From: a bacterium
Lineage (GTDB): Bacteria > UBA8248
Assembly (NCBI GenBank): GCA_965213625.1
Contig: CBDBZU010000004.1
Coordinates: 1,344,001 to 1,408,000, forward strand
Direction: 5' to 3'
Length of the DNA stretch: 64,000 nt
A program made the translations under genes and the position numbers. Shown here piece by piece: positions 4,600-64,000 of the stretch; the first letter of the stretch is position 1; the number at the start of each line of letters is the position of its first letter. The notes below the pieces were generated by a model. It did not search any database, had not been told where the DNA came from, and saw only the letters and a program-made list of their open reading frames with translations.

Positions 4600-6633
4600 T
4601 CAGGAAGTGAGGGCGACTGCCCGGTGGTCACTTGCCGCCCGATCAGATGAGAAGATCGGGCGCTTCGACTTGATTCGGAGCTTGAGGCTCTTGCGAGGGG
4701 TGCAGGTCGGAAACGGGTTTATCTTGACCGGGTAGCTCGATGGCAGCACTTCAAGCTCGAAGTAGTAGGCGATCATCAAAAGATTGATCGTCATTTGATA
4801 TTCCGCCACCCTCGGGCCGAGGCAGGTGTGCGTACCGAAACCGAATGCCCCGAACGCGCCGGGTTTCTTGTGCTCCTCGCGCCCGGAAAGATACCGGTCG
4901 ATGTCGAACTTCTCCGGATCCGGATAGTTCTCCTCCATGTAGTGAACGGCAGTGGACGCCAGCACGACGCGGGCATCGATGGGTAGTTCATAGCCCTCCA
5001 CGATGCAGCTGTTCATGACGGTTCTCAGCTGCAACGGTACGCTGGGATAGATCCGGAGGGTTTCTAGAATCAGCCGGTGGGCGGTGTCGATGTTCTCCTC
5101 CTTCAAGTCCTCAGGTCCCGGGTCTCCGTTCGCGAACAGCGCCTCGGCTTCCCTGCGCACACGCTGAAAGACATCCGGATGGGAGACCATCAAATAGAGC
5201 CCGAACGCGACGGCGGTGCCCATATACATGGCTGCGACGAACGGGATGATCATCATGAACCTGGTATCGGTATCCGGGAAGTACTGTGGGTCGCTGGTGT
5301 GCAGGCTGAGCAGGTCGTCGATCAGGTCGCGGGGTTGGTTTTCGCGCTGCGCAGGGGTGTGCGAGTTGCGGATCATGGAATAGACGTGGTCGATGCGCTG
5401 TCGGATGGCCTTCATCCGAGGCGTTCGCATGAAGAACTTCGGCAAAATCTTCTGGGCGTAGGTGATCAACATGCGGTTCTTGTATTTGTGGATGTCGTCC
5501 ACGTATTCTGAAAAATCCATACTGAACAGGAGCCGGGATACCTGGCCGGACATCAGAGTGCGGGTTGCGTCCTTGGCGACGAGCACGTCGCCCACGTTCC
5601 ACGAATCAAGCGCCAGCCGCATCTCTTCGAACAGGTCTCCGAGACGGTTGTTCAGGCGGCTCCGGGAGGAGGCCATCTGGAACGCCTTGCGCATGCGGAA
5701 ATGTTCGGCCCCGTCCATGCCCGGCAGGCTTCTCGATGCGCCGAGTACCTTCTCCATACCCTCCATGGTTTCCTTTGAACGCAAGTGCATCCGACCGTTC
5801 CGGTTTACCCAGATGTTGGCATCGTTCCCGGCGATGATGAAAACTCTCTTCTTGGAAAGGGGAGACTTGATTGCGAAAACGGGACCATAGTCGCGGTAAA
5901 GATCGGCCAGCAGTTTGGACGTATTCCCTTGCCAAAGCGAATCTTTGCGGAGCATTTTCCACAAGCTTACGTTGGGAATGGGTTTTGTCGCTATCGCGAT
6001 AGAGCGACTGACCGATGTCTCCACGACGGCGGCGGCGACGGAGCGGCTGATGCGGTCCAGCATGCCCAGCAGTTCGATTCGCTCGCGCGAAGCCTCGTAG
6101 TCTGCCGGCTGCAGAAGAAACCGGAACGCGTCGCAGGAATTGGCAAGTCCGATGATAATTGCGTCACGGGGGTCGGGTATGCCGTCTCCCAGGATCGTCT
6201 CGATGATTCGCCGACGTACGATTGCCCGAGACTCGCCGCTGGACATACCGTTGTCCGCTATAGCCGCGTTTCGCGAAAGAGACCAGAAGCCGCCGTTCGT
6301 ATAGTCCAGGATCCCGTTTTTCGACAACCGTCCGAGAGCATGATGCAGGATATCGTCCGACGTAGCGGCGATTTTCTCGACCCAGTAATTTATGCTGCGT
6401 GGCTCCGGATCGGCGGCAATTGCCGCCAGCACGGGGTCGAGAATATCGTCTCCCACGGGTGTGGAATCGTCCAGCGCAAACGTCTCGTGCGCGGTGTCGA
6501 GACGGGACTCGAGGTCAAGGTCCGCCAGCACGGCGCCTGCCATAACGCACGAGAGATTCCAGCCCGCAACCTGTTCGAGATAGCCGCTCTCTTCGTTCAG
6601 CAAGAGAAGCAGGAGCTCGTCAATTAGTTTCAT
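4600..6633 (-). CDS. Cytochrome P450 with N-terminal GPP34/GOLPH3-like domain
   Basis: Heme motif FGFGTHTCLG, ExxR (ETLR), PEKFDIDRY. The first ~210 aa (ELLLLLLNEESG, AGAVLADL, GDDILDPVL, PDPRDAIIIGLA) match the GPP34 pattern. Confidence 0.85.
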   Translation of the reverse strand: MKLIDELLLLLLNEESGYLEQVAGWNLSCVMAGAVLADLDLESRLDTAHETFALDDSTPVGDDILDPVLAAIAADPEPRSINYWVEKIAATSDDILHHALGRLSKNGILDYTNGGFWSLSRNAAIADNGMSSGESRAIVRRRIIETILGDGIPDPRDAIIIGLANSCDAFRFLLQPADYEASRERIELLGMLDRISRSVAAAVVETSVSRSIAIATKPIPNVSLWKMLRKDSLWQGNTSKLLADLYRDYGPVFAIKSPLSKKRVFIIAGNDANIWVNRNGRMHLRSKETMEGMEKVLGASRSLPGMDGAEHFRMRKAFQMASSRSRLNNRLGDLFEEMRLALDSWNVGDVLVAKDATRTLMSGQVSRLLFSMDFSEYVDDIHKYKNRMLITYAQKILPKFFMRTPRMKAIRQRIDHVYSMIRNSHTPAQRENQPRDLIDDLLSLHTSDPQYFPDTDTRFMMIIPFVAAMYMGTAVAFGLYLMVSHPDVFQRVRREAEALFANGDPGPEDLKEENIDTAHRLILETLRIYPSVPLQLRTVMNSCIVEGYELPIDARVVLASTAVHYMEENYPDPEKFDIDRYLSGREEHKKPGAFGAFGFGTHTCLGPRVAEYQMTINLLMIAYYFELEVLPSSYPVKINPFPTCTPRKSLKLRIKSKRPIFSSDRAASDHRAVALTS

Positions 6634-51946: not shown

Positions 51947-52251
51947 CTTATTCCCGAACGCGCCGTGCCGCCCCGCCATCATACGCGGAATCTTCCTCCA
52001 GCCCATGACCGCATTGCGGGCAAATGCGCGCGCCGAACGCTCGAATCCGACCTGAGAAGAAGGGGCTGCAACGCCCCCGGTAAGGGAAATCCTGCGGCGC
52101 GCCAACCCCTCAGAATACCTCCTTGCGATTCATCCCGGCGCACCGCAAATGCGGGGAAATGCGCACACTTGGATTTATTGACAAATCCATGCCGTGTGGG
52201 ATGATGAACGATGCCCGATGCGGATGAAGGATTTTCGACGTTGTGAGGCGC

Positions 52252-52671
52252 ATGATGGTCGAGTACGACAATTTTCGTATGTCACTCAAAAGGCTGGGCG
52301 AGCAGTATGAGAATTACCGGGAACTTGATGCAGCGCTTCCCGCATTGCTCCAGGAAGCCGTCGCCGAGTCAGTTATTCAGCGCTTCGAAACCTGCTACGA
52401 CTGCCTCTGGAAAGTGCTCAAGAGATACCTGGTAGAGGAACTGGGCGTCGCGGACTCTCCGAACAGTCCCAAGCCCGTTTTCAGGCTTGCCTTCGAGAAC
52501 GACTTGATACCCGCTCCTGTGGAGCGATGGCTGGGCTATGCGGACAGGCGCGTCGATACCGCCCACGCCTACAGTGGCGAGAAGGCGCGAGCCGCTTTGG
52601 AAATAGTGGGCGACTTCATTGAGGACGCAGCGGCCCTTTACCGAACCATGAGCGGGCGGAGTTGGGAATGA
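52252..52671 (+). CDS. HI0074-like HEPN (nucleotidyltransferase substrate-binding) toxin
   Basis: IQRFETCY, SPKPVFRLA, RxxxxH motif RVDTAH. Confidence 0.85.
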   Translation: MMVEYDNFRMSLKRLGEQYENYRELDAALPALLQEAVAESVIQRFETCYDCLWKVLKRYLVEELGVADSPNSPKPVFRLAFENDLIPAPVERWLGYADRRVDTAHAYSGEKARAALEIVGDFIEDAAALYRTMSGRSWE

Positions 52672-52997
52672 GCGTACGGGTCGACATCACCGAGGCGCAG
52701 CGTGCGCTCATTCTGGATTTGCTCGATAAGCATCTGCCGAACACCACTGCCTGGGTGTACGGTTCCCGTGCGAAGGGAGAGGCGCGTCCCAAATCCGATC
52801 TCGATATGGTCGTGTTCGCTGGTCACGCCCAAAGCCGCCGGGTTTACGATCTCAAGGAAGCCTTCGAGGAGAGCAACCTGCCGTTTCGTGTGGACGTTTT
52901 CATTTGGGATTCCATGCCCGAGCGCTTCCGCGAGCGCGTCCTGTCTGATCACGTCGTTCTCGTAGCGGGGGAATCGGCTCTTGAGAACAAGACTTGA
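52668..52997 (+). CDS. Minimal nucleotidyltransferase (MNT) antitoxin
   Basis: YGSRAKG...SDLD, LPFRVD; ATGA overlap with the HEPN gene. Confidence 0.85.
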   Translation: MSVRVDITEAQRALILDLLDKHLPNTTAWVYGSRAKGEARPKSDLDMVVFAGHAQSRRVYDLKEAFEESNLPFRVDVFIWDSMPERFRERVLSDHVVLVAGESALENKT

Positions 52998-53235
52998 TTT
53001 TCTGTATCCCATGAGCAGACGCTGCGATATCTTAAGTCGTTCACCAGTGGGGATGACCCCGCGCGGTTTGGTAGAAGTCGTCTTGGCTCAGAGTCGCTGA
53101 AAAATGGATTCCGCATTCCCTCCCGCCTTGGTCGAAAATGACACCGGTATGACGATACCTTTTCTCGCTCGACAAACGTAATTGTAGCGGACAGGCTCCT
53201 GTGCCTGTCCAAGGTCGCGCCCTTCATGGCCGACC

Positions 53236-53583
53236 TCAGACATGCACGAGTTCCCTTTCAACGTAGGGACGTATTTCAGACCGCAACTCCTGGTCGGTCG
53301 CCAAATCCACAGGTCGTCCCAGTAGGTCCTCGATGTAAAACTGCGCGCCGAAGTAGCGGTGATAGCCGGGCGGCTCGTCGAAGCGCACCAGGACATCGAG
53401 GTCGCTGTCCTCCTCCGCCTCGTCTCGGGCGAAGGAGCCGAAAATGGCGAGTTCGGCGATGCCGAAGCGCTCCGCGAGGATCCCCTTGTGCGCCCGGAGA
53501 ATCTTCAGGACTTCGTCGCGCTTCGTCGGGGCGTCCGTGGATTCAATAAAAAGAGTCCTGTGGTTCTTCCGTTTTTGCGTCAT
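53236..53583 (-). CDS. Minimal nucleotidyltransferase (MNT) antitoxin
   Basis: FGSFARDEAEEDSDLDVLV, LLGRPVDL. Confidence 0.85.
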   Translation of the reverse strand: MTQKRKNHRTLFIESTDAPTKRDEVLKILRAHKGILAERFGIAELAIFGSFARDEAEEDSDLDVLVRFDEPPGYHRYFGAQFYIEDLLGRPVDLATDQELRSEIRPYVERELVHV

Positions 53584-53787
53584 GATCTATCCCTTCCGAA
53601 TCTCCGGTCGCGGCAGGCGGTCGCGCGCGCCCATAATACCGCGTCGTCCTCATATGTTATCGTATTCGAGAAGAAAGCCGTCCACAAGTTCGCCGAACGC
53701 GGCTTCTGTCTCGTAATAGTCGGTCAACTCGGCGAACGCCCGGAGCTCGAGCCCGCCGGGTCTTCGAGCCCGATGAAGCCCTCAAAA

Positions 53788-53874
53788 GAGCAGCCCCCGT
53801 ATCGCGTAGACTTTTTCACGCGGGATGCCACCCACGAACGCGTCCTGTCCGATCATTTCGTTTTTGTGGCGGGA
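53788..53874 (+). pseudogene. Degraded fragment homologous to the 3' end of MNT 52668-52997
   Basis: PYRVDFFTRDATHERVLSDHFVFVAG versus PFRVDVFIWDSMPERFRERVLSDHVVLVAG. Confidence 0.6.
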
Positions 53875-53961
53875 AGCGATTCGATTCCGCAGCGGATACA
53901 GAAGTCTCCCTTCACCTATCAAGATTGTCCCTCCTCGCTTCAATCGGAATTGGCTTCTTTC

Positions 53962-54351
53962 GGGGTTGTTAAAAAAGTCCTCTCCGCCTCGCCCTTCGAT
54001 ACGCGGCTTCGCCGCTACTCAGGGTGAGGGAAAGAGGTGTTAGCGAATTCCAGGGGATGCATACTGGGATGTTGCAAACCCCTCATATCGCGGATTCTGC
54101 GTTTGAAACCAAACGGGGAGAATGGTCCGGTAGGGACAGGCCCCCGTGCCTGTCCTGGGTCGCGACCTGTCCCTACGGAAGATGACTTTTCAAGAGAGTA
54201 ACCCCCCTGTCCCCCCTTGTCAGGGGGGCCTTTCTTTCACCTCTCGTCGGGGGGTATCGCCTTTGCCCCCTGACAAGGGGGGTTGGGGGGTTGCTTTTCC
54301 AGTCGAGAGGGGTGTCATCTCTATCCCCTGAAAAGGGGACTTTACACCCCC
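53962..54351. repeat. Composite REP/MITE cluster
   Basis: Starts with GGGGTTGTTAAAAAAGTCC; 53993-54029 is the reverse complement of 4190-4226 with 2 mismatches; GTAG palindrome 54130-54176; CCCCCTTGTCAGGGG/CCCCTGACAAGGGGG pair also seen near 20273. Confidence 0.7.
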
Positions 54352-54645
54352 TCATGCAGGCTGCGGCTCGTAACGCTCGACCTCGGTTTCATCCTCACGC
54401 TCGAGCGCCCGCGCGATGTCGTGGGCCGTCTGAAGGCGTATCCATGTCTCCGTCGTCGAGCCGAAGGCCTTGGCGAGGCGTATCGCCATCTCGGCGGACA
54501 CCCGCGCGCGCCCGTTCACCAGGTTCGAGAGCGCCTGGCGGCTGACGCCGAGAACTTTCGCGCCCTCGGTCACGCTCAGGCCCAGCGGCTCCAGGCACGA
54601 GACGCGCACGACCTTGCCGGGATGCGGCGGATTCTTCATGGGCAT
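54352..54645 (-). CDS. higA: HigA-family antitoxin (XRE HTH), orphan
   Basis: [42 protein letters not shown]; AGGAG RBS. Confidence 0.85.
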
Positions 54646-55020
54646 GGGGCGTTCTCCTTTGTTCGGTGATAGTCGACTGTCAAGCGACACTTGGCAATCG
54701 TTCCCCTGCGCCGGTTAATCCCTTCTCATTGGATCGGGGAGAGAGACATTTCCCTTGCAGGTCGGTATGGCGCATATACGGCCGAGCTCGCGGTCACAGC
54801 CTTCGGACGCAAAGTTTCGGGAAACGGCGCGTTGGCTATATGAGCGCCGGGTTACTGGAAGTGAGCGTCGCCATCACGAACTTCGTAGTGGAGGATGAGA
54901 GGGAAGAATGATTGCTGATAAGGCACCGGTGTGTCCCGCCCGACCATGCCGCCCTTACAGAGAGGAAGGGGAGAGTCCGAATAGGGTGATTCGTTGATTT
55001 GATCGTTAAGCCCCCGCGGA

Positions 55021-56118
55021 TCACGAGGGCCCGGATTCCCCCTCAGAATCGACGAACAGCCGGAAGTAGGCGAGGGCGGCGTAGGCCTTGGCCTCGATGT
55101 CGTCGCCCTCGATCGAGAGCTTGAAGTGGTTGATTCCCTTGTAGAGGATGGACATGCCCTTTTCCTCGAAGAGCCGCTCGATTCCCGGGAAGGCGCGCAG
55201 GCCGTCTCCCTTCTCCGGCAGGCACCATTTCATCTCTTCTAAGTAGTCGATGACGGGACGCCAGGCGTTGCGCCCCGACGTCAGCCAGTAGTCGAGGTTC
55301 GAGGGTTTTCTCGGCCTGTACATCTCGAGGCCCAGGCGCGGCCCCACGCCGCTTGCGGAGACGTTCAGCGCCAGCCGGAAGACGGGTGTCACATCGCGCA
55401 TCTCTTCCAATACCTCCATCACCTTCCGGGCGGGGCCGTCCCATTTCAGGCGCTTCAGGAATGCCGGCACGTTGCGCTGCTTCAACCCGTCCACGATGAG
55501 GCGGACCGAGCGCGCGCCGCGCTCGGGGACGGCGCCAATCTGGTCCACCTCGCCGCTGCGTGGCAGGGCGGCGAAGGCCCGCTCCACGGCGAGCCGCTCC
55601 TCCTCGTCCGCCTCCCACCCGACCGCGCTCGCCATGGTGGCGGCGAGGTTATAGGGGGTTCGCGAACCGGCGACTTTTTCGTCCAGTTCGGACTGAGGCT
55701 GGAGCGCCAGGAACACGCCCGGGGGTGGGTGCAGGTTCCGGGGAACCTCCGCGATGTCGTATTCGAGCATCGACGCCCTGAACCAGCCGTCGAGAGACGG
55801 TTCGGAGGGAGGAGCCGCCCCGTTCATGAGGGAGTAGACGCGGGCGAGGGCCGCCTCCGCGGTGTCGGGTTTTGCGTCCTCGCCCAGGCGGACGAAATAG
55901 TCCATGGACGGACGCCCCGGCGCAACGGAGACGAAATAATCCGCGGCGGGCGCGGGGTCGCCCAGCCGGAACTCGAAGGCCGCGTAATTGAGTGTCAGCC
56001 AACTCGGCAGTTCGCCGACGCGCTCCACCAGGCGATCCCGCCACGGGTCGTCGAGCAAGACCGATGGAACGAAGCGGCGCAACCTTGGGAAGACGTCTCC
56101 GAAATTCTCAGACATCAT
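55021..56118 (-). CDS. NHLP-associated hypothetical protein, putative ABBA-fold peptide prenyltransferase
   Basis: Directly downstream of the NHLP precursor. Motifs FEFRL, LEYD, GPRLGLEMY and INHFKL...AKAY recall ABBA/DMATS barrel strands; the function is inferred. Confidence 0.5.
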   Translation of the reverse strand: MMSENFGDVFPRLRRFVPSVLLDDPWRDRLVERVGELPSWLTLNYAAFEFRLGDPAPAADYFVSVAPGRPSMDYFVRLGEDAKPDTAEAALARVYSLMNGAAPPSEPSLDGWFRASMLEYDIAEVPRNLHPPPGVFLALQPQSELDEKVAGSRTPYNLAATMASAVGWEADEEERLAVERAFAALPRSGEVDQIGAVPERGARSVRLIVDGLKQRNVPAFLKRLKWDGPARKVMEVLEEMRDVTPVFRLALNVSASGVGPRLGLEMYRPRKPSNLDYWLTSGRNAWRPVIDYLEEMKWCLPEKGDGLRAFPGIERLFEEKGMSILYKGINHFKLSIEGDDIEAKAYAALAYFRLFVDSEGESGPS

Positions 56119-56299: not shown

Positions 56300-56587
56300 T
56301 CAGGAGTTCTGGTTCAAGCTGTTCCATGCGTTGGCGAAGTCTAGCATCGTCTGCGACCCGGCCACGACGGCGCTCAGGTCCGCCTCGCTCAACTCGGCCG
56401 GCGGCAGGACCAGGTGAATGCTCATGATGTTGTCCTGGTGCACGCCTATCTTGAACCCTTCGGGAATGGTGACCCCCAGTTCCTTCTCGATGGCCGCCTT
56501 GGGGTCTGTCAGCAACTCGGTGCGGAACGCCTCGTTCACGCTCGCCTTTCTGATAATCTCCTCGCGTACTTCTTCAACTGTTTTCAC
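56300..56587 (-). CDS. NHLP (nitrile hydratase-like leader) RiPP precursor
   Basis: IIRKASVNEAFRTELLTDPKAAIEKELG...IHLVLP...ELSEADLSAVVAG leader, then the 18-aa core SQTMLDFANAWNSLNQNS; GTG start 56587 after GGAG. Confidence 0.85.
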   Translation of the reverse strand: MKTVEEVREEIIRKASVNEAFRTELLTDPKAAIEKELGVTIPEGFKIGVHQDNIMSIHLVLPPAELSEADLSAVVAGSQTMLDFANAWNSLNQNS

Positions 56588-57005
56588 TGCTTCGAGTTCT
56601 CCACATGATGTCCCTGGCCGGAAAGGGGGCGATGTACCTTCACCCTCCGATGCCGGGGCGCCGCAACGCTTTGTGCGGGGGAGAGTGATTGTTTCGCCAT
56701 CCCTCCTCCCGGGCAATAGACGATGCCGCTAATGAAAAAAGTATATATGGGGAGTACTTTTCGTCAACAAAATTGCAACCATGCGTCGAATAAATACGCA
56801 TTTTCCGCTACAAAACCCCTCGAAACCCCGTCAATTGCATGAAAATGCCGCAAACCTGCCGGTTTTCTCCCATGGATGTCCTTCGCGGGCCTTTTTTCTT
56901 GAGAGGGCAAAATGAAGTGTGCGAAACTTCCGATCTATTGCCAGGTCGAAGAACGCAGGTTTCCGCTCCACCGAAGGTCCGCTTACCAGCCGGGAAGGAT
57001 GTGAC

Positions 57006-58778
57006 ATGAGGGATGAGGAGTCAGGACAGCACACGAATACGGACGTACGCTACGAAGCCGACGAAAAGCCGCCGCCCCTGCTTGCTTTCGGCCTGGGCTT
57101 GCAGCTCGCCGTCCTCTGCGTGGGCGGCATCGTGTTCACGCCATTTATCGTGGTGCGGGCCGCCGGAGGAACGGAGGATTATCTCTCTTGGGCCGTGTTC
57201 GCCGCCTTGGCGATCTGCGGCTTGACCACGATGCTCCAGGCGTACCGGATCGGTCACTTCGGCGCGGGCTACGTGCTCATCATGGGCACCTCGGGCGCTT
57301 TTATCGCGGTCTGTATCGCGGCGCTCGCCAGGGGGGGGCCGGGGATGCTCGCCACGCTGGTCCTCGCATCCTCGCTGTTTCAGTTCGTGCTCTCCGAACG
57401 CCTCTCGCTGTTCCGGCGGGTGCTGACGCCGACTGTCGCGGGAACCGTCATCATGCTGATAGCGGTGACGGTGATGCCCATCGTCTTCAAGATGTTGAGT
57501 GACGTGCCGAAGGGCGCTCCCGCGCTCGCCGCTCCGCTGAGCGCTTTTGCGACGGTGGTAGTCATCGTCGGCATCGCGCTCAAGGCGACGGGCGCGCTGC
57601 GTCTGTGGGCGCCGGTGATCGGCGTGGTCGCGGGTTCGCTCATGGGCCTCTATTTCGGCATCTACGATACGGCCCGCGTCGCTGGGGCTTCGTGGATCGG
57701 CCTTCCCCAGGGCGCGTGGCCAGGCCTGGACCTGAGCTTCGGGCCGGTTTTCTGGACGCTTCTTCCCGGGTTCGTGTTCGTGACCCTTATCGGCGCCATC
57801 GAAACCGTGGGCGACGGCGCGGCCATCCAGCGCGTATCCTGGCGTCGGCCCCGGGCGGTGGATTTCAAAGCGGTGCAGGGCGCGGTGGCCGCCGACGGGG
57901 TGGGCAACCTGCTCTCCGGCCTTTTGGCGACGGTGCCGAACACGACTTATTCGACGAGTGTGTCCGTCACCGAACTCACCGGCGTCGGCGCGCGCACCGT
58001 GGGGGTCGCCGCAGGACTGGTGTTTCTCTCCCTGGCGTTTATTCCCAAGCTGGTGGCCGTGGTGCTGGCGATACCGGCTCCGGTCGCCTCGGCCTACATC
58101 ACCGTGTTGCTGGCGATGCTCTTCATCGTCGGCATGCGGATGGTCATTCAGGACGGAATCGACTACCGCAAGGGGCTGGTGGCGGGTATCGCGTTCTGGG
58201 CGGGCGTCGGCTTCCAGAACGGCGTCATTTACCCTGAGTATTTCTCCACGTTCGCGGGCGGCCTCCTGAACAACGGTATGACGGCCGGCGGCCTCGTCGC
58301 CATGATCATGACGCTGTTCGTGGAACTCACCGAACCGCGCCGCAGTCGGCTCGAGGTGGCGTTCGACCTCTCGGCCCTGGAAAAAATCAGGGAGTTTCTC
58401 GGTGAATTCGCCTCGGCCGGCGGCTGGGACGAAGCGATGGCGCACCGCTTGGACGCCGCGGGCGAGGAGACGCTGCTGACGCTTCTGCGCCAGGATGAAG
58501 CAGACGAGGGGTGCGAGCGCAGGCGCCTTCTCGTGGTGGCGCACAAAGAAGACGGCGGCGCGGTGTTGGAGTTCGTCGCAGCGGGCGGGGAGGAGAACTT
58601 ACAGGACAAAATCGCGCTATTGGGCGAGCAGGCCGCAGGCGCGCCGCTCGAGCGCGAGGTCTCGCTCAGGCTGCTGCGCCACCTCGCTTCTTCGGTTCGC
58701 CACCAGCAATACCACGACACGGACATCGTGACCGTTCGCGTGGAAGCCGCAGGCGCGCCGCGCGGCGGGGGGAGTTGA
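57006..58778 (+). CDS. NCS2 (xanthine/uracil permease-like) transporter fused to a C-terminal degenerate RsbW/HATPase-like domain
   Basis: YEADEKPP, MGTSGAF, TPTVAGTVI, IETVGD, ADGVGN, PKL. The last ~140 aa align with the RsbW at 61618. Confidence 0.8.
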   Translation: MRDEESGQHTNTDVRYEADEKPPPLLAFGLGLQLAVLCVGGIVFTPFIVVRAAGGTEDYLSWAVFAALAICGLTTMLQAYRIGHFGAGYVLIMGTSGAFIAVCIAALARGGPGMLATLVLASSLFQFVLSERLSLFRRVLTPTVAGTVIMLIAVTVMPIVFKMLSDVPKGAPALAAPLSAFATVVVIVGIALKATGALRLWAPVIGVVAGSLMGLYFGIYDTARVAGASWIGLPQGAWPGLDLSFGPVFWTLLPGFVFVTLIGAIETVGDGAAIQRVSWRRPRAVDFKAVQGAVAADGVGNLLSGLLATVPNTTYSTSVSVTELTGVGARTVGVAAGLVFLSLAFIPKLVAVVLAIPAPVASAYITVLLAMLFIVGMRMVIQDGIDYRKGLVAGIAFWAGVGFQNGVIYPEYFSTFAGGLLNNGMTAGGLVAMIMTLFVELTEPRRSRLEVAFDLSALEKIREFLGEFASAGGWDEAMAHRLDAAGEETLLTLLRQDEADEGCERRRLLVVAHKEDGGAVLEFVAAGGEENLQDKIALLGEQAAGAPLEREVSLRLLRHLASSVRHQQYHDTDIVTVRVEAAGAPRGGGS

Positions 58779-59045: not shown

Positions 59046-59633
59046 CTATCTCCTCCCCCGCGGGTGGTGGTCGAGGCCGCGATAGGCGTTGATGAAGGCG
59101 GTGATGCGCTTCTCGTCAAAGGCCTCAAGCGTGTCTATCTTCCCCCAGGCGGTGAGCGCGATCTTGTGCTTCATGGCGGGATAGGGAGCGAGAATGACGT
59201 ACTTCGAGTAGCCGCGCACCAGGTTTTCGAGCTTTTTCACGAGTTCGGGACAATCGCTGCAGCCATACTGCACCAGAACGCCGCCGTCTTCCAGGTTGTG
59301 CACCTGGAAGCCCCTGTCGATCGGCTTCCGGTGGACGCCCCAGGGGACGATGGTCGGATAGTGCGGCCCCGAGGTGGGTGGGTCCGTGTTGTAGGAGATG
59401 GCGCCGCTCGTTCCGACGCGGATGTGGCGGTTGCCGAGGGAGGGCACGTCGCGCACCTTGTTCGCGCTTGCGCCTGTAAAGTAGTAAATGCCGATGACGA
59501 CCGCCGCGATGACGATCACCCACACGAACGATGCGGTGCGCTTGTTCCTGGAGCCTTTGGCTTTGGCCTGACGCGAAGGGCCGCGTTTCGTGGAACCGGG
59601 GGATTTCCTTTTTCCTTTGGATTTTCTGGACAA
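59046..59633 (-). CDS. DUF3105 domain membrane-anchored protein
   Basis: One TM helix, YNTDPPTSGPHY, VHNLEDGGV, IALTAWG; start uncertain. Confidence 0.8.
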   Translation of the reverse strand: MSRKSKGKRKSPGSTKRGPSRQAKAKGSRNKRTASFVWVIVIAAVVIGIYYFTGASANKVRDVPSLGNRHIRVGTSGAISYNTDPPTSGPHYPTIVPWGVHRKPIDRGFQVHNLEDGGVLVQYGCSDCPELVKKLENLVRGYSKYVILAPYPAMKHKIALTAWGKIDTLEAFDEKRITAFINAYRGLDHHPRGRR

Positions 59634-59966
59634 GGCGGGACCTTTCTCGATGTTGCGGTGGTCGGCGGCGTCTGGATACCCCGAGGGGTCGCGCCTCAAG
59701 ATACGTAATCGCGAGAGTCGGGACAAGCGGGCGTCGGGTGAAATTTTCGAGGTTTCATTCCCCTTCGGCGCAGATTTGATTCACGCGCACGCGCTCGTGA
59801 AGCCCGGGTTTTAGGGGAGTTGCAGGCCGCCGCACCGGATTCCACCGGTCATACGAGAACGAAAAAATCAGTTGCGCGACGCGTGAGTCTTATATACATT
59901 TAGCAGGCGTTCGAATATGCTTGGGCGTTCATTGAGCAAAGTCAGGGCAATGGAGAGGTAGGGACG

Positions 59967-60407
59967 ATGGATTCGTGCAGGATACTCGTAGTCGATGATG
60001 AAGCCGACCTGGAAGACCTCGTGAATCAGCGCATGCGGCGCGATATTCGCAGCGGCCGCTATTCGTTCGTGTTCGCCCGCAACGGAGTCGAAGCGCTTGA
60101 AAGACTGAGTGAAGACAGTGACATCGACATCGTCATCACCGACATCAACATGCCGGAGATGGACGGCCTCACCCTGCTCGAGCAAATCCCGGCTTATGAC
60201 CCCAAACTCCGCTGCGTCATCGTCTCCGCGTATGGAGACATGAAAAACATCCGCACGGCGATGAACCGGGGCGCATTCGATTTCCTCAACAAGCCGATCG
60301 ATTTCCAGGACTTGCGGCAGACCATTGAAAAATCTCTGGAGCATCTCGCGAATATACGGGAGGCTTTTGAGGCGCGCGACAAGATGCTGACGGAAGGGAG
60401 GTCGTGA
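59967..60407 (+). CDS. Single-domain response regulator
   Basis: ILVVDDE, TDINMPEMDG, SAYGD, KPIDF. Confidence 0.9.
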   Translation: MDSCRILVVDDEADLEDLVNQRMRRDIRSGRYSFVFARNGVEALERLSEDSDIDIVITDINMPEMDGLTLLEQIPAYDPKLRCVIVSAYGDMKNIRTAMNRGAFDFLNKPIDFQDLRQTIEKSLEHLANIREAFEARDKMLTEGRS

Positions 60408-61621
60408 TGGAAGAGCCCCACAGGATACTCGTGGTGGACGATGAGCCCGATCTCGAGCAACTCGTTCTCCAGAGAATGCGGCGCGAGATACGAAGAGGCC
60501 GCTATTCGTTCGTGTTCGCCCGCAACGGGGTCGAGGCGCTCGAGCGCTTAAACGATAACAATGGCGGCGATACTATCGACATGGTGCTCACCGACATCAA
60601 TATGCCCGAGATGGACGGTCTTACGCTGCTCAAGCAAATCCCCTCGGTCGACCCCAACGTGCGCTCCGTGGTCGTCTCGGCGTATGGAGACATGAAGAAC
60701 ATCCGCACGGCGATGAACCGGGGCGCATTCGATTTCGTCACCAAGCCGATCGACTTCGAGGATTTGCGGATCACCATAGAACGGACCCTGGAGCATCTCG
60801 TCATGCTGCGCGAAGCGCTGGAAGCGCGCGACAAGCTGGTCGCCCTGAGAAGCGACCTCGACCTGGCCAGCAAGATGCAGCAATCGATTCTGCCGACCAA
60901 ATTCCCCGAAAGCCCCCACTACGAGATATTCGCGGGCATGGTGCCCGCCCGGGACGTGGGAGGCGATTTCTTCGACGTGATAGACCTGGGCGACGGCCGC
61001 ATCGGCATCACGGTCGCCGACGTTTCGGGCAAGGGGGTGCCCGCCGCGCTTTTCATGATGTCGAGCCGCACGCTGCTCAACAGCGTCGCTGTCGCGCGCG
61101 CCAATCCGGGCGACGTGCTCGGCGAGGTGAACCGTCTGCTCAGGCCCGGCGAAGTGCTGAGCGAGGTGAACCGCCTGCTCCAGGAGAACAACGACGCTGC
61201 GATGTTCGTCACCGTCTTCTTCGCTATTTTCGATTCCAATACCGGGGAACTCGTTTATTCCAACGGCGGGCACAATCCTCCGGTCATCCTTCATGCCGAC
61301 GGCTCATCGAGCCTGCTTCCCCAGCAACCGGGAGTCGCCCTCGGGATCGCGCCGGAATTCAGCTACGACATGTACAATGCGACACTCGGGCCCGGTGACG
61401 CCCTCATCCTCTACACCGACGGCGTGACGGAAGCCGAAAACGAGAAGACCGAGCAGTTCGGCCTCGATCGCCTCCAGAGTATTCTCGGGGGTTCGCCGCC
61501 AAGCTCCGCCCGGGAGATCAACACGAAGATTTTCGAGGAGGTGAAAGAGTTTGCGGGCAGGGCGCCTCAATTCGATGACATTACCTGCCTGACCCTATTT
61601 CGCCGCGGAGTGAGTGGATGA
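60404..61621 (+). CDS. Response regulator fused to a PP2C/SpoIIE (RsbU-like) phosphatase
   Basis: Receiver domain plus VGGDFFD, ADVSGKGVPAA, FVT, NGGH, YTDGVTEA, DDIT. Confidence 0.9.
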   Translation: MMEEPHRILVVDDEPDLEQLVLQRMRREIRRGRYSFVFARNGVEALERLNDNNGGDTIDMVLTDINMPEMDGLTLLKQIPSVDPNVRSVVVSAYGDMKNIRTAMNRGAFDFVTKPIDFEDLRITIERTLEHLVMLREALEARDKLVALRSDLDLASKMQQSILPTKFPESPHYEIFAGMVPARDVGGDFFDVIDLGDGRIGITVADVSGKGVPAALFMMSSRTLLNSVAVARANPGDVLGEVNRLLRPGEVLSEVNRLLQENNDAAMFVTVFFAIFDSNTGELVYSNGGHNPPVILHADGSSSLLPQQPGVALGIAPEFSYDMYNATLGPGDALILYTDGVTEAENEKTEQFGLDRLQSILGGSPPSSAREINTKIFEEVKEFAGRAPQFDDITCLTLFRRGVSG

Positions 61622-62040
61622 GCGCGAAACTTTCTTTGAAAATGGGATTCGATGCCACTGAGCTGCCACGTATCCAGTCCGCCATCGGGGAATTCAGCCG
61701 GGAGCAGGATTGGCCGCCGGACATCGAATTCCAGGTCGACCTCGTGCTAGAAGAACTCGTTCTCAACGTCGTACACCACGGCAGCAGCGACGGAGAAGAA
61801 GGTGAAATCAAAATCGAACTCGTCTCGGACGCGGAAACGGTGGTCATCGATATCATCGACGACGGCCGTCCGTTCGATCCCCTGACGGACGCACCCGAAC
61901 CGGACACCGAATCGACCATCGAAGACCGCGCCGTAGGCGGACTCGGCATTCACCTGGTGCGGACGATGATGGACGACGTGACCTATCAACGGGAGGAGAA
62001 CAAGAACCACATACGCCTTGTAAAGCGGAGGAGTGAATGA
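61618..62040 (+). CDS. RsbW-like anti-sigma factor / Ser kinase
   Basis: EELVLNVVHHG, DDGRPFDP, GGLGIHLV. Confidence 0.9.
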   Translation: MSAKLSLKMGFDATELPRIQSAIGEFSREQDWPPDIEFQVDLVLEELVLNVVHHGSSDGEEGEIKIELVSDAETVVIDIIDDGRPFDPLTDAPEPDTESTIEDRAVGGLGIHLVRTMMDDVTYQREENKNHIRLVKRRSE

Positions 62041-63218
62041 GCCTGCCGCTCCGAATCCGCCGGGCGTTTTTCCTCCTTGCTGCAGTGATATTCTGCTCGG
62101 TGTCGGGAGCGCAGGCGGCCGTGCCCGGGGTTTCCCCCCACCGTATCCTTTTCGGACAATCCGCCGCTTTCACCGGGCCTGCGAGGGCCTTGGGGGAGGA
62201 GATGCGCCTCGGCATCGAAGCCGCCTTTCGCGCATCGAACGTGCGCGGCGGCGTTCACGGGCGCCGGCTCGAACTCACCTCACTCGACGATGCGTATGAA
62301 CCCGAAGCCGCCATCCTGAATACCCGCCGGTTGATAGAACAGAGCAAGGTCTTCGCGCTCATCGGGGCCGTCGGCACGCCCCCCTCGCGCTCGGCCACGC
62401 CGGTGGCCGCAAAAGCGGGCGTCCCCTATATCGCGCCCTTCACCGGCGCCGCCTTCTTGCGCAATCCCAAATGGAAAAACATCATCAACCTGCGCGCCTC
62501 CTACTTCCAGGAGACCGAGGAGATGGTGAACCGGCTGATCAAGGACTTGGGCGTCAAGAAGATCGCCGTGCTCTACCAGGACGATTCTTTCGGCTTGGCG
62601 GGCTACCGGGGCGTTCGCCGCGCACTCGAGCGGCGCAAACTGAAGCCTGCGGTCACGGGCGTTTATCCACGGAATACGACGGCGGTCAAAACGGCCCTGC
62701 TCGACATCAGGCGCGCAAACCCCGGCGCCGTGATCCTCGTGGGAGCCTATAAACCCGTTGCTTCCTTTATCGCCTGGGCTCGCCACACGGGGTTCAATCC
62801 GATTTTCGTGACGCTCTCCTTCGTGGGAAGCAATGCGCTCGTGCATGAACTCGGCCCCGCCGGCGTCGGCATCTACGTCACCCAGGTGGTCCCGTTCCCG
62901 ACGACGAAGAATCTCAAGGTCGCGGCGGACTACAGACGGGATCTGGAGACTCACAAGCCCGGCGCGGTTCCGAGCTTCGTCTCCTTCGAGGGTTACATGG
63001 CCGGCAGGCTGGCCACCCGCGCCCTCGAACTGTGCGGGCGCAAGCCCGACCGCGCCTGTCTTCTCAAGGGCCTTCGCCGCGTGGCCACCGTCGACCTGGG
63101 CGGGTTCAAGCTCCGCTACGGCAAGGACGACAACCAGGGTTCGGACGCCGTTTTTCTCACCGTCATCGGCGAGGGCGGACGCTACATCCCGACTGAAAAA
63201 ATCCGGCGTCCGGAGTAG
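62037..63218 (+). CDS. Periplasmic ligand-binding protein (LivJ-like), probably a sensor accessory
   Basis: Signal peptide, FGQSAAFTGP, DDAYEP, NLRASY, YQDDSFG; no ABC permease adjacent. Confidence 0.8.
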   Translation: MSLPLRIRRAFFLLAAVIFCSVSGAQAAVPGVSPHRILFGQSAAFTGPARALGEEMRLGIEAAFRASNVRGGVHGRRLELTSLDDAYEPEAAILNTRRLIEQSKVFALIGAVGTPPSRSATPVAAKAGVPYIAPFTGAAFLRNPKWKNIINLRASYFQETEEMVNRLIKDLGVKKIAVLYQDDSFGLAGYRGVRRALERRKLKPAVTGVYPRNTTAVKTALLDIRRANPGAVILVGAYKPVASFIAWARHTGFNPIFVTLSFVGSNALVHELGPAGVGIYVTQVVPFPTTKNLKVAADYRRDLETHKPGAVPSFVSFEGYMAGRLATRALELCGRKPDRACLLKGLRRVATVDLGGFKLRYGKDDNQGSDAVFLTVIGEGGRYIPTEKIRRPE

Positions 63219-63220
63219 TG

Positions 63221-64000
63221 ATGAAAAGCGCGCTCAAAAACCTTCTGGACAAGCGTTACAAGATATCGACGCAGCTCTACCTCAGCATCGGCGCCGCCGC
63301 TTCGCTCACCGTCATCGCGAGCGTGGTCGCATGGGTATCGTTCGCTTTCGTGGGAGGGGTGCAGAACCGCGTGAACGAGGGCACCGTTCCATTCCTGGCG
63401 AGCGCCTTTGGCACCGCTCAGCATAGCAGCGCCCTGGTGGCCGCGGCGCCTCGCCTGGCCGCGGTGGTGAATCCGGACAACCTGGAGCAGATAGCCACCG
63501 AGGTCGCAAAGGACCAGGAGGCGTTCGAGAAAGCGCTGGCGGATCTGATACGCCAGGGCGGCAACCAGGAGATTTCCCTGCGCATCAAGAAACTCGGCGA
63601 CGTGCTGATCGAGAACCTCACCGCCATCAAACGATTGGTGCTGCAGCGCTTCGACCTCACCGATTCGCACGATACGCTCCAGCTCCAGCTCACTTGGGTG
63701 CGCAAGGAGTTGAGCAACGTCATGGTTCCCGCCATCGACGACCAACTGTTCTTCGCAATGACGGGTTTCGGCAAAATCGACAAGCCGTCCGTCCCGCGTG
63801 AGGAACACTTCTCGGAAGAGGGAATCAACCTCTACCGCTACATCGCCGGTCTGAGGTCGGACGCCACCGTCGCGGCGCAGCTTCTCACCACCGCCTTCAG
63901 CGTATCGGACGCCGCCCTGCTCGAGCCGCTGCGCGAGCGTTTCGAGGCCACGGTGCGCGGCATCAGGCGGCGCCTCGATGCGCTCGGAAAGGTTCCGGTG
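63221..64000 (+). CDS. Membrane sensor protein with TorS-like helical periplasmic domain (partial, runs off the window)
   Basis: Open frame from ATG 63221: MKSALK..., TM helix LYLSIGAAASLTVIASVVAWVSF, then a long helical region (LVAAAPRL). Confidence 0.65.
   Translation, partial: MKSALKNLLDKRYKISTQLYLSIGAAASLTVIASVVAWVSFAFVGGVQNRVNEGTVPFLASAFGTAQHSSALVAAAPRLAAVVNPDNLEQIATEVAKDQEAFEKALADLIRQGGNQEISLRIKKLGDVLIENLTAIKRLVLQRFDLTDSHDTLQLQLTWVRKELSNVMVPAIDDQLFFAMTGFGKIDKPSVPREEHFSEEGINLYRYIAGLRSDATVAAQLLTTAFSVSDAALLEPLRERFEATVRGIRRRLDALGKVPV

Follow-up and report, generated by a model that had tools for sequence, protein, structure and literature searches.

A permease of the SLC23/NCS2 fold with a degenerate RsbW-like tail and its genomic link to partner-switching genes

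The protein described here is encoded at positions 57,006 to 58,778 of a 64,000-nucleotide stretch of bacterial DNA (GTDB lineage Bacteria; UBA8248; assembly GCA_965213625.1, contig CBDBZU010000004.1, positions 1,344,001 to 1,408,000 of the forward strand), which is called the window throughout and belongs to genome G000. It joins a permease of the SLC23/NCS2 fold to a C-terminal domain with the predicted fold of the RsbW/SpoIIAB kinases, and this architecture is real, conserved and apparently undescribed. Partner switching is known mainly as sigma-factor control, and the link of the fusion to it has good genomic support. Even chances are given to the reading that the fusion is a transporter gated by the docking of a STAS protein on its tail, forming the missing output of a switch cassette. 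Neither an NCS2-RsbW fusion nor this cassette was found described in the literature, as far as a search could tell that did not cover most subscription papers, supplements and the 2007 sup paper, where a comment on the tail of SupE may exist.

The fusion protein and the fold of its tail

The gene and its two parts are as follows:
57006..58778, + strand: permease–pseudo-RsbW fusion open reading frame, ATG start, TGA stop, 590 amino acids
57006..58331, + strand: NCS2/SLC23-fold permease domain, residues 1-442, 14 transmembrane (TM) segments (PF00860, AlphaFold, Foldseek)
58332..58778, + strand: pseudo-RsbW tail, residues ~445-580, with RsbW topology (models, profile alignments, conservation)

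A ribosome-binding-like GGAAGGA stands directly 5′ of the ATG at 57006, and a longer start at the GTG at 56919 is possible. The initial annotation, made from the sequence alone, had seen an NCS2 permease with an RsbW-like C-terminal part in this reading frame, and both parts were recovered, PF00860 covering residues 30-402 (E 3e-45, 155 bits versus a gathering threshold of 27) and the tail being predicted as an RsbW-type domain.

Regarding the tail, its likeness to the RsbW encoded at 61618, also claimed at that time, is borne out by BLASTP (E 1e-6 over 52 amino acids), by profiles and by predicted structure. The best BLASTP similarity between the tail and the cassette RsbW falls in β1-α1-α2, and the profile-profile alignments of tail and RsbW reach probabilities of 88.6 and 92.8 in the same register as the motif pairs picked out at the outset. 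Neither Pfam nor NCBIfam recognises the last 150 residues by themselves (E ≤ 0.1), and PF13581 is matched by 20 of 123 tail relatives, at best with 8.9e-6. Of the 19 cassette RsbWs, 17 score higher with the tail profile than does the best of 380 shuffles (5.6 bits); within its own genome this profile matches the cassette RsbW (E 4e-5) and not the second RsbW, which is consistent with descent from the cassette RsbW lineage.

Structure prediction, which had been proposed as a check on the fold, points the same way. The AlphaFold model of the tail, built from 123 rows, has a predicted local distance difference test score (pLDDT) of 84 and a β-α-α-β-β-α-β-β topology, and its best Foldseek matches are UsfX (E 7.6e-7), RsbW and SpoIIAB. 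In an exhaustive comparison with 48,161 chains, Z ≥ 8 was reached by six, all of them RsbW-type (Z 10.8-15.7), among them 8ih8 (Z 15.7, root-mean-square deviation (rmsd) 2.4 over 114 residues) and 6m36 (Z 15.1, rmsd 2.2 over 103), followed by histidine-kinase domains with Z ≤ 7.5. The tail is thus predicted to have an RsbW/SpoIIAB-type GHKL fold. As a lead only, the ESM Atlas search with the tail returned unnamed clusters and one cluster with PF13581 on 15% of its members, and the full-length search returned PF00860 clusters.

Link to a partner-switching cassette

The permease is followed by these genes:
59046..59726, − strand: DUF3105 gene between permease and cassette (PF11303, E 2.6e-27)
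59967..60407, + strand: stand-alone receiver-domain protein (PF00072, E 2e-26)
60404..61621, + strand: receiver-PP2C (SpoIIE-type) phosphatase (PF00072 and PF07228)
61618..62040, + strand: RsbW-type serine kinase with E46, N50, D81 and G107-G108-x-G110 intact (PF13581, E 1.7e-28)
62037..63218, + strand: periplasmic binding protein, family 6, branched-chain amino acid/amide type (PF13458, E 1.9e-56)
63218..64000, continuing past the window end, + strand: TorS-like HAMP histidine kinase of 729 amino acids, its 5′ part within the window
G000:C4:1409558-1409893, 1.6 kb past the window end, convergent: STAS gene with the phospho-acceptor motif ISSAGLR

The distance of 1.2 kb that had been read between the permease and an operon of response regulator, regulator-PP2C and RsbW genes agrees with a gap of 1,188 bp. 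Those three genes are present as described, but the cassette is larger, comprising also the binding protein, the HAMP histidine kinase and the STAS gene. The stand-alone receiver protein is a paralogue of the receiver in the receiver-PP2C gene 3′ of it. As the gap contains the opposite-strand DUF3105 gene, a single transcript for permease and cassette is not supported here; a promoter and terminator scan gave 1 and 5 sites versus 0.5 and 3.6 expected by chance, an uninformative result. The DUF3105 gene is missing from the corresponding spot in the gene maps of several relatives and is probably unrelated to the permease and the cassette.

A complete switch is encoded, with a phospho-acceptor STAS, a kinase with intact motifs and a PP2C phosphatase. 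Among the cassette copies compared, the kinase motifs are the same in all 19 examined, as is the STAS serine motif in all 19. For its output, a SigB/F/G-type sigma factor was looked for, and none of five genomes passed the TIGR02980 cut-off, which the Bacillus subtilis control did. Accordingly, an input chain is present in the cassette, but a standard output is missing.

The link between the fusion and the cassette was followed through 73 genome loci, taken from the best 80 of 545 confirmed stretches. Carrier genomes were tested at 50 of these loci, short contigs, duplicate genomes and the lineage of the window itself having been set aside, and all 50 have STAS (best E ≤ 6.8e-15) and RsbW (≤ 2.3e-17). 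Comparison with non-carriers was made within four groups. RsbW is present in 14/14 carriers and 2/42 non-carriers in the order of G063, in 46/46 carriers (three weak matches included) and 12/205 non-carriers in the Dehalococcoidia-class (that of G042), and in 20/21 carriers and 8/20 non-carriers among the relatives of the window. In the Nitrospira-class (that of G073), all 21 carriers have it, with 42 of 180 non-carriers, 7 of the 180 having the cassette type (E < 1e-40).

Physical proximity recurs as well. Of the 21 Nitrospira-class carriers, 17 have a copy less than 1 kb away from RsbW; among the 46 Dehalococcoidia-class carriers, the distance is no more than about 6 kb in 9 (six stretches examined; one copy truncated), and in L083 and L084 the copy stands about 100 bp upstream of the regulator-PP2C gene. 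These cassette-adjacent copies, which share 40-76% identity with the query, are spread over four distinct permease clades, and the adjacency recurs with differing gene orders, which is harder to explain by a shared habitat. As the trees were made by FastTree and their deep nodes are weak, ancestral linkage and repeated gain are indistinguishable. The association with rsb-type genes, proposed earlier as a test of the fusion's role, is therefore present, mostly as co-occurrence within genomes, with adjacency at 11 of the 73 loci.

Variants of the cassette were also met. In some Dehalococcoidia-class carriers (L122:6305-8751 and L123:6508-8930), a membrane PP2C-RsbW fusion of about 690 amino acids is followed by STAS, and an alphaproteobacterial-type cassette (L101, L104, L106) consists of RsbW, HAMP-PP2C, an ATP-binding cassette (ABC)-type binding protein, a major facilitator superfamily (MFS)-domain protein and a 265-residue membrane protein. 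GPP34 genes lie beside STAS, cassette or permease genes at G000:C4:3615897-3616891 (L111) and in L095, L100, L101 and L028, and GPP34 is a possible further component of the cassette.

Residues lost and kept in the tail

Conservation was read from 45 full-length members, dereplicated at 70% from 284. Profile alignments place Thr492 at the N-box asparagine of the query tail, Ala525 at the aspartate of the DDG motif and REVS at the GGLG box. Among the members, the N-box Asn is kept in 2/45 and the D-box Asp in 0/45. Other residues take the place of the G box, although a partial LGL, like an intermediate stage, is still present in the two members that diverge most. Because these established GHKL motifs are lost, ATP binding by the tail is unlikely, judging from its sequence. 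The loss of ATP-binding residues read in the initial annotation thus stands for Asn, Asp and the G box, but the catalytic glutamate is kept, as E488, in 45/45 members, aligned with E49 of B. subtilis RsbW.

What is kept lies largely where RsbW meets its STAS partner. According to the available part of PMC7340262, residues R23, D42, K44/S48, E49 and Y118 of RsbW form hydrogen bonds with RsbV, E49 touching the phospho-acceptor Ser56. Through the cassette RsbW profile, R481, E487, E488 and R555 of the tail correspond to D42, S48, E49 and Y118. E487, E488 and H566 are fixed in the 45 members (100%), and E522 (98%), D534 (93%), N531, R481 and R555 (91% each) come next. Thus, by conservation alone, four of the six RsbV-contact positions named there are 91-100% conserved in the tail. 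Mean identity is alike for the tail and the membrane part (0.40-0.46), so that any contrast in conservation between pocket and tail holds at the motif level only. Co-folding of the tail with the STAS of its own genome, both entered as alignments and run with no controls, gave a score of 0.11 (mark 0.32), which counts neither in favour of binding nor against it.

Other roles for the tail have to be set beside STAS docking. It could be a domesticated structural domain, derived from a neighbouring RsbW gene and acting in dimerisation or stability like the STAS domain of SLC26, with no contact with the cassette and co-travelling with it as accessory genes of one habitat. Conservation of L458, F464 and W474 in α1 (87-96%) would suit this, as would the dimeric working form of SLC23 proteins reported in the part of PMC6308229 available, the unlinked position of most copies and the carrier G030, which lacks the cassette. 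However, the best-conserved residues are polar and at STAS-contact positions, not at the dimer face alone, only one carrier without RsbW was met, and cassette adjacency extends over four permease clades and different gene orders; we regard a purely structural tail as distinctly unlikely.

Even less credit, as a quite improbable case, is given to a tail that senses a small molecule, where a remodelled nucleotide pocket (E522, N531, D534, H566) would bind a metabolite and control transport allosterically without protein partners. Those four residues are among the best conserved and have no counterpart among the RsbV contacts named, and a predicted helix occupies the ATP-lid position in the tail model. 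The same residues could nevertheless pack the tail against the membrane domain, and the co-occurrence and adjacency of the cassette would be left unexplained.

The permease domain and its pocket

The full-length AlphaFold model (pLDDT 84) has the 7+7 inverted-repeat, 14-TM fold, its top Foldseek match being UapA (5i6c, E 9.5e-18) and the top 13 rows being UapA, SVCT1 and UraA. The curated NCBIfam cut-offs for ncs2 and pbuX are not reached (174.9 < 291.8 and 195.3 < 414.15). The pocket is formed by Q33-L34, T95-S96-G97, E266, D270, D297 and, in TM10, T314-Y315-S316-T317-S318-x-S320...T325-G326. Of the UapA residues aligned, Q85, E356, D360 and D388 recur in the query together with signature positions 1-3, 12 and 13 (5/8 NAT positions), and H86, F155, Q408, N409 and G411 do not; the TM8/TM9 acidic residues E356, D360 and D388 of UapA are E266, D270 and D297 of the query. 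The absence of the TM1 QH and of the (Q/E)NxG signature, remarked on in the initial annotation, is real: TM1 has QL, and in the TM10 signature TSVS takes the place of the QNxG of UapA. Across the 45 members, QH occurs in 1 and (Q/E)N in none.

According to the part of PMC5972032 available, ascorbate and nucleobase carriers are told apart by changes at signature positions 2 and 4, a changed position 4 being accompanied by a changed substrate. The loss of the signature therefore suggests another substrate as readily as lost transport. By its retained residues the window copy looks transport-competent, and its substrate is probably not a canonical nucleobase. The E/D/D/Y pocket (E266, D270, D297, Y315) is found in 12/45 members, including the deepest branches, and residue 266 is E in 29%, R in 22%, K in 22% and Q in 18%, being K or R in 20/45. 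The pocket is R/S/D in five of six copies examined that are linked to sup-type genes, and Q/A/A, with all three acidic residues lost, in three Nitrospira-type copies beside RsbW. Pocket type therefore tracks neighbourhood, as expected for transporters of differing substrates. The genome of the window also has a second, tail-less PF00860 permease (G000:C4:591220-592335).

The pocket bears on whether the fusion is a transceptor, whose membrane domain would sense a ligand with or without transport, the tail sequestering STAS or forming a heterodimer with the active RsbW. As in receptor families, pocket residues vary widely and tail motifs are nearly fixed; no member has (Q/E)N, and the Q/A/A copies abutting RsbW are those that this explanation fits best. 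In addition, the tail resembles the cassette RsbW most closely in β1-α1-α2, and β1/α1 is the RsbW dimer face in the part of PMC7340262 available. Against it, the query keeps E266, D270, D297 and Y315, as do the most divergent members, the cassette already has a sensor kinase and a binding protein and lacks an evident output, and many copies lie among catabolic enzymes, TRAP (tripartite ATP-independent periplasmic) transporters or polyketide synthase (PKS) genes. A transceptor is considered possible but rather unlikely. The initial annotation had left the choice between a transporter-like sensor and a transporter gated by STAS binding; a genomic association with partner-switching genes, as both would need, was found, and the gated transporter fits better, the sensor being weaker here because the window copy keeps its acidic pocket residues.

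Proposed mechanism and the points that weigh against it

Gating by STAS is the simplest reading because the cassette is without a standard output, the tail keeps a STAS-facing surface without the catalytic machinery and the copy looks transport-competent. We infer the following steps from ligand sensing to gating. The binding protein and the histidine kinase would sense a solute outside the cell, and the phosphorylated receiver would switch PP2C, so that kinase and phosphatase together would set the phosphorylation of STAS. One form of STAS would then bind the kinase-dead RsbW domain, its docking site on a proton-coupled SLC23/NCS2-type importer, and turn transport on or off. A single cassette per genome would gate one to eight permeases with different pockets.

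Several findings weigh against this proposal. RsbW or STAS lies within 8 kb at only the 11 of 73 loci already mentioned, and in 1 of 28 neighbourhood groups. The carrier G030 (96% complete, 6% contamination) has an intact copy of 88% identity among transposases, and neither RsbW nor STAS was found when this genome was searched. The cassette is also present without the fusion in non-carriers (12/205, 7/180 and 2/42), so that either further outputs exist for it or the genomes in question are incomplete, and sigma factors of the extracytoplasmic function (ECF) and RpoH/RpoS types are present as possible targets. The co-occurrence counts overstate independence because the carriers of each sample are kin, probably from one habitat. 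In the tail, the positions that match the contact residues R23 and K44 of RsbW, as named in the available part of PMC7340262, are variable. A switch that serves many permeases would also look like a hub on which many sensors converge. As to a nitrogen signal, the amt genes in the genome of the window lie far from the cassette.

Such a signal is nonetheless suggested as the input of the cassette by amt, glnA and gltBD neighbours in other genomes. In 16 RsbW-centred stretches, one per genome and chosen irrespective of neighbours, the set of receiver-PP2C, binding protein and kinase occurs in eight and a HAMP-PP2C/MFS variant in three; an ammonium transporter gene is found in seven, glnA in one and glutamate synthase in one. 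A further two loci of the Dehalococcoidia-class have the gene order STAS, receiver-PP2C, RsbW, one gene, amt, one gene, permease. The permease is near glnK-amt in five small gammaproteobacterial loci and adjoins amt in L036.

A broader picture, put forward tentatively and as short of probable, is that of a sigma-less partner switch that would act mainly by controlling solute uptake post-translationally. One STAS, its state governed by an RsbW kinase and by a phosphatase under two-component control, would dock on the pseudo-RsbW tag of up to eight SLC23-type paralogues with different pockets. The system would be tied to nitrogen status as a counterpart of the GlnK-AmtB gate and would have spread horizontally through a symbiotic community of many phyla.

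Should STAS indeed dock on the tail, a dead kinase copy would act as a portable tag that places a transporter under phospho-control, and a widespread cassette without an evident target would gain a direct one. Bacterial SLC23/NCS2 carriers would then have a first cytoplasmic domain with a regulatory role, a mirror image of STAS in SLC26, and there would be a pointer to the function of the long-unexplained permease of sup-type PKS cassettes. As the soluble parts (tail, STAS, RsbW and PP2C) are small, the idea is testable without culturing the hosts.

Comparison with known systems

Partner switches with non-sigma outputs are known in SypA/SypE and SiaB/SiaC. With the kinases RsbW, SpoIIAB and UsfX (PF13581; 6m36, 1l0o, 8ih8; SiaB 6kko), the tail shares its predicted fold and topology, the catalytic Glu and, by conservation, three further STAS-contact positions. 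Unlike them, it is without the N-box Asn, D-box Asp and G box and is fused to a 14-TM permease, and its hosts have no SigB-type partner found in five of five genomes. On these sequence features the fusion resembles a partner-switch effector and is not a member of the RsbW kinase family.

Compared with NAT/NCS2 subfamily 1 (COG2233: UapA, UraA, XanQ, SVCT1; scheme as in the part of PMC6308229 available), the 7+7 fold, PF00860, the acidic residues of TM8/TM9 and five signature positions (1-3, 12 and 13) are shared. The fusion differs by QL for QH, T-S-x-S for Q/E-N-x-G, NCBIfam scores below cut-off and a C-terminal cytoplasmic domain, the solved bacterial and fungal members having none.

SLC26/SulP transporters likewise combine a related membrane fold with a cytoplasmic domain from the partner-switching toolkit, as described in the part of PMC8256260 available, but their fused domain is STAS; here the kinase-fold partner is fused, and STAS is separate and phosphorylatable. 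MlaB is a STAS protein proposed to regulate the ABC transporter MlaFEDB, with phospho-control hypothesised; it binds the ABC ATPase, and no kinase is known for it in the part of PMC7367683 available, whereas here kinase, phosphatase and RsbW-like domain are all encoded.

Family size, spread and sup-linked relatives

The tail search gave at least 3,487 matching proteins among 8,000 candidates scored (324-1,033 amino acids), with 592 representatives at 50% identity and one to eight fusion matches per genome. PF00860 is carried by 119 of the 120 best tail matches, which rules out a chance gene fusion or an assembly error. Databases label the members 'hypothetical protein' or 'purine/pyrimidine permease'. 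The best loci (55-93% identity) include Nitrospinota, Alpha- and Gammaproteobacteria, Dehalococcoidia, Binatia, Latescibacterota, Nitrospirales, Verrucomicrobia and others, a broad range of phyla that points to horizontal spread. Stand-alone tails were considered and set aside, as 106 of 114 short matches keep transmembrane remnants, so that most are fragments; five of the rest begin at residues 437-450 and three within the tail.

Dehydrogenases, hydrolases and TRAP transporters are encoded near permease copies, as are PKS and mobile genes, and no purine-catabolism neighbours were seen among the 104 neighbour proteins scanned (104 of 143 neighbour families). Relatives 62-64% identical to the query occur in sup-type cassettes of PKS, acyl carrier protein, phosphopantetheinyl transferase and hydrolase genes (L017, L030, L033, L048, L076-L079 and L126). 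Genes of this type are described from sponge symbionts in the part of PMC3908369 available, where Table 1 places a SupE-like permease of fosmid pPS11G3, a SupE homolog of 557 amino acids, 82 bp upstream of an anti-anti-sigma gene. The sup-linked relatives are probably the published 'SupE permease' (ABE03914), an assignment by context and size, not by sequence. The window copy lies outside any PKS cassette and differs from them in its pocket.

More remote material includes a very distant relative of 547 amino acids (L074:8006-9646; 19-22% identity), whose tail-like end is still more degenerate; it lies about 18 kb from the G014 orthologue and has no match in the genome of the window. On a 3.6-kb contig of that genome (G000:C3, L091), a frameshifted tail fragment at 1258-1588, 73-79% identical and without a membrane domain, stands beside a P450-like gene and is a pseudogene or assembly debris.

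Other genes of the window

Upstream of the permease, on the − strand, 56300-56716 encodes the precursor of a ribosomally synthesized and post-translationally modified peptide (RiPP) with an NHLP leader (TIGR03793, over cut-off), followed at 55021-56118 by the gene of a 365-residue protein without a Pfam match. The pair stands upstream of the permease in 10 related loci, and no RiPP-modifying enzyme was recognised. Farther upstream (52243-54690), reading of the sequences shows nucleotidyltransferase/HEPN-like pairs and a HigA-like antitoxin gene, which mark a variable region.

The other end of the window holds a lipid or sterol-type island (362-26682), labelled by eye, with only GPP34 checked by tblastn. 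It comprises three methyltransferase-like genes, a Rieske oxygenase, three MMPL-like exporters and LolA-like and outer-membrane proteins, as well as a GPP34-cytochrome P450-like fusion at 4600-6633.

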